Origin: a virus
Lineage: Duplodnaviria > Heunggongvirae > Uroviricota > Caudoviricetes
IMG/VR virus record: IMGVR_UViG_2778261393_000005
Span: 1 to 37,935 of that record
Direction: 5' to 3' (one strand)
DNA length: 37,935 bases
Of the stretch, positions 2,344 through 6,279 are shown piece after piece. Position 1 is the first letter of the stretch. Each line of letters opens with the position of its first letter. Position numbers and translations under genes: made by a program. The notes beneath the pieces were generated by a model. That model made no database searches. It worked only from the letters and a program-made list of their open reading frames with translations, and was not told the DNA's origin.

Positions 2344-2525
2344 TGCTTGCCTCCTTTACGCCACATCGCATTCAGATATTTGTTTTGATTCACTGACGGA
2401 AAAGAATTTCTCTTAAGTAATTCCTCTCTCGATGGCATTGGCTTTACTCGTTGGCGAATAATCATTTCTGCCGGAAGAATGCCGGGATTGTATGCAAGTC
2501 CTCTCATGGTAAATTCCTCAGTCAT
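2340..2525 (-). CDS. Hypothetical small protein, about 61 aa
   Basis: ATG at 2525-2523 (MTEEFTMRG...) overlaps the stop of the upstream gene in an ATGACTGA arrangement; the longer ORF-track form 2340..2657 overlaps the upstream CDS and is less likely. Confidence 0.3.
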
Positions 2526-2811
2526 TACTGATAGCGCCATAGCGTGAGCGGTAATTACGCAGGCGCGGGTCAATTTCAGGGAAGTGGGTATATGTGGCTT
2601 TGCGGAATGGTCGGATTGATGTCTGGTAAATTCGATCGCGTTCTTCTTTCTCTGCAAGCCATATACAGTGGCGAAATTCCTTTTCCTCTTTCGTTTCCTG
2701 CGGTAGCGACATTATCCGATCGTAGTTTTTTCTGAATTTATCCAGCACCTCCGATACGGAATTGCCGGAACAGCGGCGCGGGTCATCCGCACCATACAAA
2801 GGCGCTGGCAT
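2518..2811 (-). CDS. Hypothetical protein, 97 aa
   Basis: ATG 2811-2809 with AAGGA SD; sits immediately downstream of ssb in the same operon. Confidence 0.5.
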
Positions 2812-2834
2812 AATTAAATCCTTATTTTTCTAAA

Positions 2835-3218
2835 TCAGAATGGGATGGAATCGTCGTATACAGGAGTGTTCTGCTGGTTACTACTTTGCTGCTGCGGGCC
2901 ATTTCCTGAAGCTGCAAATCCAATCTTTGCATTCAGTAATTCAAGAGTGATTGATTGACCATTTTTCCCCTGATAAATATCAACCCTGATGTTTTCTCCG
3001 GTAATTTCAACAATGCCACCTTCAACAAGAACACTACGGTAGTAATCCGCTTGCGCTCCCGGCTTGGCAAATACAACGGCGCTGTAGTTTGTCCATTCTT
3101 TCTTTTTTGTCTGGCGTTCGTAATACTGAACGCCAGCACGGATGTTGAATCCGATATTTTCCCCGGTCTGAAACTCTCTTGCGGGCTTGTTTAGTCTTAC
3201 AGTAATCGAATGTGCCAT
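2835..3218 (-). CDS. ssb: Single-stranded DNA-binding protein (phage SSB)
   Basis: MAHSITVRLNKPAREFQ... ending in acidic tail ...PVYDDSIPF (SSB C-terminal motif); ATG 3218-3216 overlaps erf stop (TAATG); the ORF-track N-terminal extension is discounted. Confidence 0.75.
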   Translation of the reverse strand: MAHSITVRLNKPAREFQTGENIGFNIRAGVQYYERQTKKKEWTNYSAVVFAKPGAQADYYRSVLVEGGIVEITGENIRVDIYQGKNGQSITLELLNAKIGFAASGNGPQQQSSNQQNTPVYDDSIPF

Positions 3219-3823
3219 TAAGCAGCAGCTCCTTCTAATTCGTCTCGTCTGATGTTGTAAACGTCCTGCGCTTTGTGCTGCTCCGGTGTGCCTTCGAGCA
3301 TCTTCCACGCTTTGGCGAACGCCTGTTTAAGCTCTTCTACGGTGTTTTTCTGCATTGCTGCGTCAGTGAATGCTTTTAGAACCTGTTCAGGTGTAGGTGA
3401 TGGTTTTGATTGCTTTGCTGCTGCGTTCTGCTGATGTTTATGCTCGTCGGTATCTGCATCTTTCGCATCATCAATGCCGAATAAACCATTGAGGCAATAC
3501 TTGCGTGCATAAGAGCTTGTAGCTCCCGTAACTTGTGCAGAATCCATTCCTTTCTTGCTTTCTTCCTCTCGTGCAAGAGCGGTTGCCGTATGACTGTTTT
3601 CGCCATCGGTAATAGTTGCCGTGGCTTTCACGTAATACCGATCACCAATCAACACAACTTCATCGCTGATTGATAAAAACAGGCCATTCAGTAGCGGCTT
3701 AACGCCTTCAAGAATGTCTTCGCAGCTTCTGTATTTATATTTACCGAATGAGTTGTACTGATTCTTTGGCGCGTTCAGATTCTCCTGAATAGCTGCCAGT
3801 CTTGCGTAAAATTCTTTGCTCAT
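3218..3823 (-). CDS. erf: Erf single-strand annealing recombinase (P22 Erf-like)
   Basis: MSKEFYARLAAIQENLNAPKNQYNSFGKYKYRSCEDILEGVKPLL... matches recalled P22 Erf N-terminus; ATG 3823-3821; the ORF track begins at an upstream TTG. Confidence 0.85.
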   Translation of the reverse strand: MSKEFYARLAAIQENLNAPKNQYNSFGKYKYRSCEDILEGVKPLLNGLFLSISDEVVLIGDRYYVKATATITDGENSHTATALAREEESKKGMDSAQVTGATSSYARKYCLNGLFGIDDAKDADTDEHKHQQNAAAKQSKPSPTPEQVLKAFTDAAMQKNTVEELKQAFAKAWKMLEGTPEQHKAQDVYNIRRDELEGAAA

Positions 3824-3833
3824 ATGTTTGTTC

Positions 3834-4004
3834 TCAGAATGGACATTCCCCAAGGAAATAACGCTGATTTAATACTTCGACTCGGGACAAATTAAGGCAT
3901 ACCCGCATTCCTTCGCGGTCGCCATTATGGCGATACCAGAGAGCTTTCTGCGTGTACATGCGTCTCTGTAACTTGCTCTCCTTCACTGTGGTTGCAAGTG
4001 ACAT
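3834..4004 (-). CDS. Small ORF, 56 aa, in the arf position between kil and erf
   Basis: ATG 4004-4002 preceded by AAGGAG SD with 7-nt spacer; MSLATTVKESKLQRRMYTQKALWYRHNGD...; an alternative overlapping frame (3925..4083, ATGA-coupled to kil) also exists. Confidence 0.3.
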   Translation of the reverse strand: MSLATTVKESKLQRRMYTQKALWYRHNGDREGMRVCLNLSRVEVLNQRYFLGECPF

Positions 4005-4079
4005 GAATATCTCCTTCGTTACCGATTAATTCTTTCATCTGACGAATGAATTCTTCGTCTGACCAGTTATCTGTAAAAC

Positions 4080-4232
4080 TCATTTCCTGCGATACCACGG
4101 AAGGTTGATAGCTGATTTCATCGCTTTATTTGCTTCAAGCCACATTTTGGAATCACCAATAAATCTGGCTATTACTGCTTTGTTTTGTGCAGCACGAAGC
4201 ATCTGGTGATTGATGGCTATTTCATTGCGCAT
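4080..4232 (-). CDS. kil: Kil-like host cell-division inhibitor peptide, 50 aa
   Basis: MRNEIAINHQMLRAAQNKAVIARFIGDSKMWLEANKAMK...; the FIGD.KM..EA motif and position after cIII resemble lambda/P22 Kil as recalled; GAGG SD. Confidence 0.5.
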   Translation of the reverse strand: MRNEIAINHQMLRAAQNKAVIARFIGDSKMWLEANKAMKSAINLPWYRRK

Positions 4233-4348
4233 AATAAGACCTCAAATCTTTTCCATCCGTCACGTAATTTACGGGTGATTCGTTCAAGTAAAGATTCATT
4301 TAATTGGAAGGCACCCATGCGAGCGCCTCCCGCGATTGCGTAAATCAT
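4217..4348 (-). CDS. cIII: CIII-like FtsH inhibitor, 43 aa
   Basis: MIYAIAGGARMGAFQLNESLLERITRKLRDGWKRFEVLLCAMK; ESLLERITRKLRDGWKR matches the recalled lambda CIII core; AAGGAA SD; overlaps kil start. Confidence 0.6.
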   Translation of the reverse strand: MIYAIAGGARMGAFQLNESLLERITRKLRDGWKRFEVLLCAMK

Positions 4349-4372
4349 GGGTGGTTCCTTATGTTGGTTTTA

Positions 4373-5341
4373 TTAGTAGGTTATTTTTGTTGCGAATACT
4401 TCGCCTTTTACGATGGCTGTTATGATATTTTTAGCAACATCTTCTGATGCACCAACCTTGATAAGGTCAGCAAGTATTTTGTTATTTACTTCTTTCCGGT
4501 GAGCTTTATCCTTTGCTCTACGCTCTTCTTCTTCCTTGATTCTTTTTTCTTCTGCTATTCTGGCTTGCTCTTTTGCTTCAGCCTCGCGCCGGATTCGTTC
4601 AGCCTCCTCCTGTGCTTTTCGGCGTTCTGCTTCAATTGCCGCCTGCTTTTCTCTTTCAGCTCGTTCTGCTGCCTCTTTTGCTTCGCGCTGTGCTCGTTGC
4701 TCGGCTTCAATGCGTTCACGCTCTGCACGTTCCGCTGCGGCCTTAGCTTCTGCTTCTCGCCTTGCTGCTGCTTCAATTTCGGCTTTTGCCTTTGCTTCGG
4801 CTTCTGCTCTGGCTCTCTCTTCAGCTTCTCTTTTTAAGCGTTCTTCATGCTCTCGCTTTTCCCGCTCCGCTTTGAGTCTTGCCTCTTCTCTTTGGCGGTC
4901 AAATTCGCGATCCATCAAAATCGCTATTTCATGGTCAGACTCAATTTGCTTTGCGAGAGCTTCAGCTGCTGCCTTAGCTTCTTCTTCGGCTTTAATCCGT
5001 GCCTGTTCCTCCTCATAATCAGTAAGAGGCTGGCGCGCCTTGGCTTTCAGCTCATCAAGGCGATCACGCACTGTCTTGCGGTTGGCATCAATTAGCTTTG
5101 GAATTTCCTTCAGTTCAGCAACAAGGTCTTTGCCAAGACCATCGAGATATGTTTTCGTCTGCGCAACTTTATACGCCAGAGAAGCGATCTCCTTTCTGCC
5201 CTTTGCCGTTGTGATATCAGGCACAAAGGACATAACTTCACGTTCAACCCTTTGAAGGATTTCTTCAATCTGGTCGGCAGACTGAAATACAGTCATTGCA
5301 TTTGCTTTTTCAATAACAACTAAATCTGTTACTTCACTCAT
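4373..5341 (-). CDS. Hypothetical coiled-coil protein with long E/A/R/K-rich low-complexity repeat
   Basis: ATG 5341-5339 (MSEVTDLVVIEK...) with GGAGGA SD; about 150 aa of near-pure EAKR repeats; underlying DNA is repetitive (gcttc/gctgc). Confidence 0.55.
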   Translation of the reverse strand: MSEVTDLVVIEKANAMTVFQSADQIEEILQRVEREVMSFVPDITTAKGRKEIASLAYKVAQTKTYLDGLGKDLVAELKEIPKLIDANRKTVRDRLDELKAKARQPLTDYEEEQARIKAEEEAKAAAEALAKQIESDHEIAILMDREFDRQREEARLKAEREKREHEERLKREAEERARAEAEAKAKAEIEAAARREAEAKAAAERAERERIEAEQRAQREAKEAAERAEREKQAAIEAERRKAQEEAERIRREAEAKEQARIAEEKRIKEEEERRAKDKAHRKEVNNKILADLIKVGASEDVAKNIITAIVKGEVFATKITY

Positions 5342-5353
5342 ATATCCTCCGTC

Positions 5354-5382
5354 AAAAAAATTGCCCTCACACTGGAGGGCAA
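5354..5382 (-). terminator. Rho-independent terminator (leftward), between ral and the coiled-coil gene
   Basis: Minus-strand hairpin TTGCCCTC-cagtgt-GAGGGCAA followed by TTTTTTT. Confidence 0.5.
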
Positions 5383-5516
5383 AGAAGATTTCCAATAATC
5401 AGAACAAGTCGGCTCCTGTTTAGTTACGAGCGACATTGCTCCGTGTATTCACTCATTGGAATGAATACACAGTGCAGTGTTTATTCTGTTGTTTATGCCA
5501 AAAATAAAGGCTACCA

Positions 5517-5717
5517 TCAGGCAGCCTTGTTATTCTGTTTACCAAGTTCTCTGGCAATCATTGCCGTCGTTCGTATTGCCCATTTATCGACATATTTCCC
5601 ATCTTCCATTACAGGAAACATTTCTTCAGGCTTAACCATGCATTCCGATTGCAGCTTGCATCCATTGCATCGTTTGAATTGTCCACACCATTGATTCTTA
5701 TCAATAGTCGTAGTCAT
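5517..5717 (-). CDS. ral: Ral restriction-alleviation protein
   Basis: 66-aa ORF MTTTIDKNQWCGQFKRCNGCKLQSECMVKPEEMFPVMEDGKYVDKWAIRTTAMIARELGKQNNKAA, recalled as lambda Ral. Confidence 0.8.
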   Translation of the reverse strand: MTTTIDKNQWCGQFKRCNGCKLQSECMVKPEEMFPVMEDGKYVDKWAIRTTAMIARELGKQNNKAA

Positions 5718-5795
5718 ACGGATAGTCCTGGTATTGTTCCATCACATCCTGCGGATGCTCTTCGAACTCTTCAAATTCTTCTTCCATATATCACC

Positions 5796-6122
5796 TCAAA
5801 TAAGTGGTTTGCTGCCTAATTTCATTTTCTGGCGACCAACACAAGTCACCCCCATTTCACTGCGTGGCTTGCTGTACCATGTGCGCTGATTCTTGCGCTC
5901 AATACGTTGCAGGTTGCTTTCAATCTGTTCGTGGTATTCAGCCAGCACCGTAAGGTCTATCGGATTCAGTGCGCTTTCTACTCGTGATTTCGGTTTGCGA
6001 TTCAGCGAGAGAATAGGGCGGTTAACTGGTTTTGCGCTTACCCCAACCAACAGGGGATTTGCTGCTTTCCATTGAGCCTGTTTCTCTGCGCGACGTTCGC
6101 GGCGGCGTGTTTGTGCATCCAT
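5796..6122 (-). CDS. N: Antitermination protein N
   Basis: MDAQTRRRERRAEKQAQWKAANPLLVGVSAKPVNRPILSLNRKPKSRVESALNPIDL... (arginine-rich motif, lambda N-like); ATG 6122-6120 with AGGAG SD; the ORF-track N-terminal extension is discounted. Confidence 0.85.
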   Translation of the reverse strand: MDAQTRRRERRAEKQAQWKAANPLLVGVSAKPVNRPILSLNRKPKSRVESALNPIDLTVLAEYHEQIESNLQRIERKNQRTWYSKPRSEMGVTCVGRQKMKLGSKPLI

Positions 6123-6279
6123 CTGGATTCTCCTGTCAGTTAGCTTTGGTTGTGTGTGGGAGTCGTAGTCCTGAACGAAAACACCCAGCAATGGCACATT
6201 GACAGCTAATCCGGATTCGCACTTCCGGCCAATGCTTCGTTTCGTATCACACACACCAAAGCCTTCTGCTTTGAATGCT

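Follow-up and report, generated by a model that had tools for sequence, protein, structure and literature searches.

Phage phi80 (Lula) carries in its early-left operon the gene agt (JX871397, PHI80_40), annotated as 'anti-toxin for Gam; Mog (modifier of Gam)', and, as the next gene, gamL, annotated as 'host RecBCD/SbcCD enzymes inhibitor; toxic without Mog'. According to Rotman and coworkers (2012), gamL is reportedly toxic to E. coli, and the nearby agt is said to be its antidote, 'apparently encoding a modifier protein'; phi80 lysogens are likewise reported to behave as recD and sbcCD phenocopies. Other relatives, Sf6 gene 33, D3 Orf53, and PAJU2 gp49, fall in PHROG 1376 and are annotated as hypothetical proteins. 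Here, we describe the member of this family found in the window, i.e., the whole stretch of 37,935 nucleotides (nt) of the IMG/VR virus record IMGVR_UViG_2778261393_000005, which is overall an Sf6/HK620-like P22-like phage. The gene (the target, below) occupies positions 4373..5341 on the minus strand and encodes 322 amino acids (aa). In the literature search, no paper pairing gamL with agt was found, and none on Sf6 gp33 or PHROG 1376.

Like phi80 Agt, the target protein has an N-terminal domain, a charged helical linker, and a C-terminal domain, and its gene lies in the early-left operon. In phi80, only 7 nt separate agt from gamL, after which come recT and exo; in the window, there is no gamL, and cIII, kil, erf, and abc2 follow. 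Sf6 gene 33 has the same terminator and the same neighbors as the target, except that in Sf6, a further gene, 34, lies between ral and gene 33; it is missing from the window. D3 Orf53 shares the architecture and is encoded directly upstream of Erf and an exonuclease.

Outside the family, ER/K single alpha-helices, in which opposite charges form salt bridges within one helix, serve to connect two domains as a semi-rigid spacer or spring (PMC4183817, PMC5347031, PMC5378345). With those of myosin VI, myosin X, and INCENP, the target linker shares the richness in E, R, and K (and A), the salt bridges, the lack of a hydrophobic seam, and the place between two domains (PMC4183817, PMC5347031, PMC4571873, PMC5378345). 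It differs in being phage-encoded and Ala-rich (25%), with ~130–170 aa; a monomeric helix is predicted, and the likeness is physical, not one of homology. P22 Abc1, Arf, and lambda Ea10 are, like the target, non-essential and encoded in or next to lambdoid recombination modules, without any likeness in sequence or architecture. The role of such accessory proteins is to modulate, not to catalyze, recombination (PMC12315714). The same survey of lambdoid recombination modules covers annealing proteins, nucleases, single-strand DNA-binding proteins (SSBs), and anti-RecBCD proteins, and the word 'Agt' does not occur in its text.

A widespread family with three-part architecture

The target is nearly identical in DNA to Sf6 gene 33 (98.5%) and to the mEp213 gene (99.4%), and the genes of mEp043, HK544, IME10, CUS-3, and several Stx1a phages fall in the same range (98.5%–99.4%). 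The gene itself is, in this sense, already catalogued, and its relative phi80 agt has been described genetically. The two 322-aa proteins, target and phi80 Agt, align over their full length (51% aa identity, E 5e-64, BLASTP), with N- and C-domains that are only ~40% identical. PHROG 1376 is matched over aa 1–322 (E 1.5e-109) and labeled 'unknown function'. The preliminary description, made from the window alone, had also called the function unknown; this agrees with the PHROG label but leaves aside the full-length homologue annotated as antidote or modifier of GamL.

With the N-domain as query, tblastn finds 189 phage records (58 of Pseudomonas, 51 of Vibrio, 20 of Escherichia, then Klebsiella, Yersinia, Erwinia, and others), among them D3 orf53 and phi80 agt, the latter at 40% identity. 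An exhaustive HMMER search with the same domain gives 4,959 clusters at E ≤ 1e-3, of which 3,429 reach E ≤ 1e-10 (clustering at 50% identity); the N-domain is always N-terminal, and the proteins are mostly of 280–400 aa. The family thus comprises thousands of sequence clusters in alpha-, beta-, and gammaproteobacterial prophages, and yet it has no Pfam entry: no Pfam model matches the target (E ≤ 1), 57 diverse relatives, or the set of C-domains. The NCBIfam search of the target returned only noise. With Foldseek, the full model finds nothing at E < 1 in the PDB, and the N-domain model finds only family members in BFVD. In the libraries searched, we found no earlier record of the size of the family, of its single-helix spacer of conserved length, or of its near-constant place ahead of four recombinase types. 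A 99%-identical copy (locus L087, a 3.9-kb contig, JAFADF010000066.1) occurs in a metagenome-assembled genome labeled Actinomycetes, and there are further matches in such genomes labeled Coriobacteriia, Planctomycetes, Vampirovibrionales, and others; in some cases, these may be mis-binned contigs.

The N-domain of the target (aa 1–112; 5006..5341, minus strand), delimited by alignments, a domain hidden Markov model (HMM), and AlphaFold2, is helical and carries the motif VPDxxTxKGRxxIAS...GKDL...D..R...R.PL..WE, in which the letters mark invariant or near-invariant columns. The charged helical linker follows (aa 113–280; 4502..5005, minus strand), delimited by composition, helix prediction, and salt-bridge pairs; its pure part, resembling an ER/K single alpha-helix, spans about aa 148–280. 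The preliminary description rightly distinguished an ordinary N-terminal part (aa 1–115) from a stretch dominated by E, A, R, and K (aa 116–285), where these four residues make up 81% (28% Glu, 25% Ala, 17% Arg, 11% Lys) and reach 87% in aa 160–285. What it overlooked is that the last ~40 residues are again of ordinary composition, with hydrophobic residues. They form a conserved non-repeat C-terminal domain of 42 aa (aa 281–322; 4376..4501, minus strand), a helix-turn-helix with a terminal strand according to the alignment and a domain HMM, with the consensus HR..IN..A..AL...G..E..AK....AIA.G.IP...I.Y. A comparison of the C-domain profile with PDB sequences returns designed repeat proteins and, weakly and non-significantly (E 0.2–1.8), RuvA domain III/UBA; the domain may be a small protein–protein interaction module, a lead rather than a finding.

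In the AlphaFold2 model (alignment of 30 sequences), helices are predicted at 12–20, 22–37, 46–295 (continuous), and 300–311, with a mean predicted local distance difference test (pLDDT) of 81. The pLDDT exceeds 90 at aa ~30–170, falls to 65–75 in the remainder of the long helix, and is low at the extreme C-terminus. The N-terminal 150 aa modeled alone give the same picture (pLDDT 86.6). For the N-domain, the models place helices at 12–20, 22–38, and from 46 on, with a pLDDT of ~90.

The three parts hold well beyond close relatives. Among 240 diverse members, 212 carry both end domains by the domain HMMs, and in 188 of these, the C-domain reaches precisely to the C-terminus. The membership of the target in this family and its three-part architecture are, in our view, near certain. 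Against Enterobacter-type homologues, the ratio of nonsynonymous to synonymous substitution rates (dN/dS) is 0.05 for the N-domain and 0.04–0.06 for the C-domain, so that the 322-aa frame, described beforehand as a large early protein, behaves as a translated one. The two end domains are exchanged independently of each other: in 33 pairs of loci, the N-domains are at least 80% identical and the C-domains at most 45%, a pattern to be expected if each end had a partner of its own.

A linker conserved in length and charge pattern

The preliminary description had left the choice between a charged single alpha-helix and a coiled coil. For the long charged part, the sequence favors the first. In the linker (aa 113–280), pairs of opposite charges at i/i+3 and i/i+4 number 89, vs. 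54.9 ± 5.8 in shuffled sequences (none of 1000 shuffles reaches 89). With 58% of residues charged, E/D to K/R pairs at i+4 number 25, vs. 13.6 ± 2.5 in shuffles. Between aa ~146 and ~280, the best-register occupancy of heptad positions a and d by hydrophobic residues is 0.12–0.25, and in aa 150–285 at most 0.13, i.e., no coiled-coil seam. Roughly, residues 148–280 carry the sequence signatures of a stable ER/K single alpha-helix and not those of a coiled coil. On the other hand, aa 48–100 have an a/d occupancy of 0.62–0.75, and this segment reads as an amphipathic helix that would pack on helices 1 and 2 or dimerize. With the helix rise of 0.15 nm per residue, the computed span, if helical, is ~20 nm for aa 148–280 and ~25 nm for aa 113–280.

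Across the family, the linker has a median length of 183 aa (interquartile range 168–201; 140–220 in 180 of 212 members) and consists to 78% of E/A/R/K/Q/D, with less than 1% Gly plus Pro. In 208 family linkers, the salt-bridge pairs are enriched with a median z of 3.96 (z > 2 in 95%), and the a/d occupancy has a median of 0.18. Against Enterobacter-type homologues, the proportions of nonsynonymous (pN) and synonymous (pS) differences in the linker are 0.23 and 0.82, the latter saturated. The linker identity is 62%–68% both for end domains at 93% identity and for those at 40%, low-complexity alignments inflating such values. The linker therefore appears to be conserved in its length and salt-bridge pattern rather than in its exact sequence.

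The KER of CAF-1 is described as a DNA-binding single alpha-helix and a length ruler (PMC10335832). It is, like the target linker, a long K/E/R-rich single helix in a context of DNA metabolism with a proposed spacer or ruler role. The KER is said to bind DNA through a basic face. In the target linker, the helical charge moment is below that of all 500 shuffles, the net charge is −5, and there is neither a basic nor another charged stripe. A DNA-binding stripe of the KER type was for this reason rejected, and the helix itself is unlikely to bind DNA directly.

Place ahead of recombination modules

The genomic context was compared in 101 diverse loci, taken from reference phages, from IMG/VR contigs, and, in 78 cases, from a scan in which each GTDB species was represented by one genome. 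The taxa included are Enterobacterales, Pseudomonas, Acinetobacter, Aeromonas, Achromobacter and other Betaproteobacteria, Xanthomonadales, and many Alphaproteobacteria. The first long downstream open reading frame (ORF), assessed with Pfam in 98 loci, is ERF in 31, RecT in nine, DUF3799 (a PDDEXK nuclease) in six, and YqaJ in four, with AAA_24 (two), Arf (two), and SSB (one) more rarely. In 47 of the 98, this ORF follows the family gene at a distance of at most 18 nt. Locally built HMMs place the start of Erf or RecT no more than 400 nt downstream in 44 of the 101 loci and no more than 3 kb downstream in 59, and 75 loci contain an annealing protein or a YqaJ exonuclease at some point. In the other 26, the next three ORFs include 12 hits to AAA_24 (Sak4-type), nine to DUF3799, and four to RecT. 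The order is orf53–Erf–exonuclease in D3, and homologue–GamL–Bet/RecT–Exo in Klebsiella phage Mulock and phi80. The family gene, therefore, usually leads the recombination module, whichever non-homologous annealing protein (Erf, RecT, or Sak4) follows, and whether or not there is an exonuclease.

The type of the neighboring annealing protein is not predicted by the similarity of the N- or C-domains (one-nearest-neighbor accuracy 0.73 and 0.64, respectively, vs. a baseline of 0.78). The lack of covariation with an Erf or a RecT neighbor argues against a recombinase-specific contact and favors conserved partners, e.g., host proteins; the high conservation of the N-domain (mean identity 51% over 55 diverse prophage and phage loci) is consistent with conserved host partners.

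Possible roles

We propose that the target is a cytoplasmic, delayed-early accessory protein of the Agt/Sf6-gp33/D3-Orf53 family that modulates recombination or the fate of DNA ends, a proposal with about equal chances of being right or wrong. The part of it that concerns the modulation of recombination or DNA ends is, taken alone, perhaps slightly likelier to hold than to fail. In this proposal, the protein would be a ruler-like adaptor, each end domain binding a different partner, and the helix of 20–25 nm would set the separation and the effective concentration of the two partners. Its job would probably be to modulate the processing of DNA ends in favor of phage recombination. The targets would be host nucleases of the RecBCD/SbcCD type, or else phage-encoded inhibitors or redirectors of these nucleases, such as GamL in phi80 and, in the window, possibly Abc2. 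This would generalize the annotated role of phi80 Agt, which tempers an otherwise toxic GamL; with no GamL in the window, the partners would be host proteins and/or the Erf–Abc2 module.

A wider form of the proposal is tentative, and we hold it to be doubtful rather than probable. According to it, Agt/gp33 proteins would be an unrecognized, widespread part of the recombination modules of proteobacterial temperate phages: a single-helix ruler of ~25 nm, with a host-directed N-domain and a C-domain for a second partner, that gates or bridges the host DNA-end machinery (RecBCD/SbcCD class) whichever annealing protein is present. If true, no length-selected ER/K spacer of a bacteriophage would have had a defined role in DNA transactions before this one. 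Should the family truly belong to the recombination modules, the parts list of these modules is incomplete, and the phi80 observation that GamL needs a 'modifier' becomes testable in many phages. The single helix of conserved length offers, in addition, a simple experimental handle on whether the distance between the end domains matters.

Several points weigh against the proposed role. The functional information on the family consists of the GenBank annotation of phi80 and the 2012 description of gamL and agt, and GamL itself occurs in only six of the 101 family loci. No GamL-like sequence is found in the window (best tblastn E = 1.2), where cIII, kil, and two small ORFs separate the target from erf. 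The conserved synteny in the early-left operon could reflect shared regulation, not shared function. The similarity of the end domains does not predict the annealing-protein neighbor, and nothing points to a specific contact with the recombinase. Neither end domain has a structural or profile homologue in Pfam, Foldseek, or profile searches. The target may dimerize through its heptad-like aa 48–100, which bears on the oligomeric state of the supposed ruler, and family copies with shorter linkers exist (see below).

The most serious alternative is that of an accessory gene unrelated to recombination, serving host takeover, anti-defense, or superinfection exclusion, its proximity to recombinases being only the layout of the early operon. 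We consider it rather unlikely, although several observations suit it. The target has a terminator of its own in front of it and lies where mosaic modules meet (boundary sequence bsq4 of Sf6), cIII and kil intervene before erf, and the domains do not covary with the recombinase type. The gene is also dispensable, as close relatives such as HK620 are absent from the matching phage records, and lambda and P22 carry other genes in this slot, which is that of lambda ea10 and P22 gene 17, behind tL2 (tL2a). Operon layout alone, on the other hand, poorly explains the tight adjacency, often of 3–18 nt, to four non-homologous families of recombinases or nucleases in alpha-, beta-, and gammaproteobacterial prophages. 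Moreover, the sole annotated activity in the family concerns an inhibitor of RecBCD/SbcCD, and no PADLOC defense model matches the target.

A homodimeric or higher-order coiled coil, structural or tethering, e.g., a DNA bridge like SMC/Rad50 instead of a monomeric spacer, is quite unlikely. Some RefSeq copies are indeed named 'coiled-coil domain-containing protein', aa 48–100 have the heptad pattern given above, and the AlphaFold2 monomer models would fit a monomer and a coiled coil alike. The low a/d occupancy of the linker, in the target and across the family, and the arrangement of its charges for intrahelical salt bridges speak against it, as does the lack of any ATPase or DNA-binding head domain in Pfam and NCBIfam searches.

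The annotation of phi80 suggests a dedicated antitoxin of GamL, copied as 'antitoxin protein' in phage HF4s. Among the 74 GamL loci in IMG/VR, an Agt-like gene precedes gamL in 30, each time at a distance of exactly 7 nt; in the remaining 44, it is missing. Since the pairing is so loose in both directions (GamL in six of 101 family loci), an obligate Agt–GamL pair was rejected, and the activity documented in phi80 cannot be the general function of the family. For the target, in a window without GamL, a dedicated GamL antitoxin is very improbable. A type II antitoxin was also rejected: there is no toxin neighbor, the protein has 322 aa, and there is no Pfam match to a helix-turn-helix, ribbon-helix-helix, or AbrB domain.

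In ~40 of the 44 agt-less GamL contigs (set L171–L244), a short conserved leader (translated ...HPIQPIGLA..GRDLHIQISG) stands immediately before gamL; in other phages, this leader precedes agt. The agt gene looks like a cassette that is cleanly present or absent before gamL.

The idea of a hypervariable, slippage-prone repeat locus of the contingency type, which extends the earlier claim of a GCTTC/GCTGC-type microrepeat prone to slippage and length variation, is hardly tenable. Tandem Repeats Finder reports one weak 6-bp array (4746–4829, 63% matches, score 43). The DNA coding for the ER/K part contains 30, 5, and 1 repeated 8-, 10-, and 12-mers, respectively, with a longest exact repeat of 12 nt, vs. 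~35.5, 7.8, and 1.7 (longest 12.3) in shuffles of synonymous codons and ~33.4, 6.8, and 1.4 (longest 11.9) in shuffles of codon order. This DNA is compositionally biased, without repeats beyond the shuffle null.

The length is also kept. The gene is present in 530 of 5,426 complete E. coli genomes (~10%), mostly with exactly 969 bp (60 rows sampled down the ranking of the 530 genomes). Compared across related prophages, the encoded protein has exactly 322 aa in 58 of the 66 close copies in IMG/VR, a length shared by the top protein cluster (471 sequences) and by the 76%–79% identical homologues of Enterobacter, Cronobacter, Citrobacter, and Salmonella. In-frame variants of 245, 275, 290–309, and 333 aa form a minority. 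In HK633, a segment of 66 nt (22 aa; 4673..4738, minus strand) is missing in the pairwise alignment, and the deletion is flanked by an imperfect direct repeat, GCAGCGGAACG / GCAGCAGAACG, alike in 10 of 11 nt. Repeat-mediated indels in the gene do occur, but they are rare and not dominant.

In CUS-3, an insertion of 1 nt after coding nt 336 (about 5005/5006 in the window) splits the gene into an ORF of 116 aa for the N-domain and a remainder of 214 aa. Copies of 970 bp in UTI89 and three more of the sampled E. coli chromosomes probably share this insertion. Split halves of the CUS-3 type probably explain PHROGs 17211 (aa 1–115) and 21365 (aa 111–322), as well as the 116-aa BFVD entry A5VWA2. 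A great many copies in the databases are 'partial' proteins of 120–210 aa, some from contigs no longer than ~1 kb. Breaks of short-read assemblies in or near the ER/K-coding region may be frequent, e.g., because it is shared by several prophages or because coverage or assembly fails in purine-rich DNA.

The same composition accounts for two long antisense ORFs on the plus strand (4499..4837 and 4536..5018, overlapping and confined to the linker). The ER/K-coding strand is 75% purine and 5.8% T, and aa 148–285 have two Leu codons and no Ser codon; because the strand is T-poor and nearly without Leu and Ser codons, long plus-strand frames lack stops. The two ORFs are compositional by-products, spurious as first described.

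A TolA-like protein of the cell envelope can be set aside as next to impossible: names such as 'cell envelope biogenesis protein TolA' are given by RefSeq, pharokka, and IMG, and the composition resembles the long Ala/Glu/Lys-rich helical domain II of TolA, but the target has no hydrophobic anchor (the maximal 19-aa Kyte–Doolittle mean is 1.03, at aa 293, not N-terminal), no match to TolA in Pfam or NCBIfam and no TolA C-terminal domain (domain III), and its gene lies inside a phage early operon. This name, carried systematically through the family, and the labels 'colicin import membrane protein' and 'fibrinogen binding protein' found on other copies are low-complexity artifacts. At the least, a widespread annotation error is thereby corrected, and the idea of a slippage-prone repeat removed.

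Expression signals and neighboring genes

The target ORF, identified from the ORF list and by nucleotide and protein comparisons, starts with the ATG at 5341 and ends with the stop codon 4373..4375. A Shine–Dalgarno sequence GGAGG (5346..5350, minus strand), read from the sequence, stands 5 nt 5′ of the ATG. A longer version starting with TTG (to 5395) would have its start inside the terminator, and this version is not conserved. The terminator scan places an intrinsic terminator with an 8-bp stem and a T7 tail at 5354..5382 on the minus strand (hairpin 5382..5361), base for base the feature annotated as tL2A in Sf6, in agreement with the terminator first proposed to precede the gene. With a terminator 5′ of it, the gene should need N-antiterminated transcription from pL; by analogy with lambda, it would be expressed as a delayed-early gene through N-antiterminated read-through of the tL2A-like terminator.

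The Pfam matches to Ral (5517..5717) and cIII (4217..4348, Lambda_CIII) confirm the place of the target between ral and cIII, all on the minus strand in the same leftward operon. This operon also contains N (5796..6131) upstream and, downstream, kil (4080..4232, Lambda_Kil), Erf (3218..3823, ERF), and the anti-RecBCD protein Abc2 (2518..2811, Anti-RecBCD_p2), again by Pfam. For the part 3′ of the target, from cIII to Abc2 (2518..4348, minus strand), the assignments agree with the annotations of Sf6 and HK633.

Between ral and the target, there are two tandem terminators. The first is a second terminator-like hairpin (5507..5528, minus strand; nine pairs followed by TATTTTT) that overlaps the 3′ end of ral, and the tL2A-like one follows. 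The spacer of 175 nt (5342..5516, minus strand) aligns to the Sf6 region with the annotated mosaic 'boundary sequence' bsq4. It contains an inverted repeat of 9 bp at 5443..5470, GTGTATTCA-N10-TGAATACAC. Rfam gives no match in the whole window or, separately, in 4200–5800.

In the interval between kil and erf, the ORF list contains two small overlapping ORFs of 56 and 57 aa (3834..4098, minus strand), inside the recombination region. They have no Pfam match; their counterparts are Sf6 genes 29/30 and HK97 gp42/42.1. Between erf and abc2, an ORF at 2835..3218 (minus strand) is similar to HK97 gp40, following the HK633 annotation of its counterpart, and is also without a Pfam match. HK97 gp40 is treated under single-strand DNA-binding proteins in PMC12315714. 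The C-terminus of the window ORF, ...DDSIPF, resembles the acidic tail of bacterial SSB, and its product may be an SSB-like protein.

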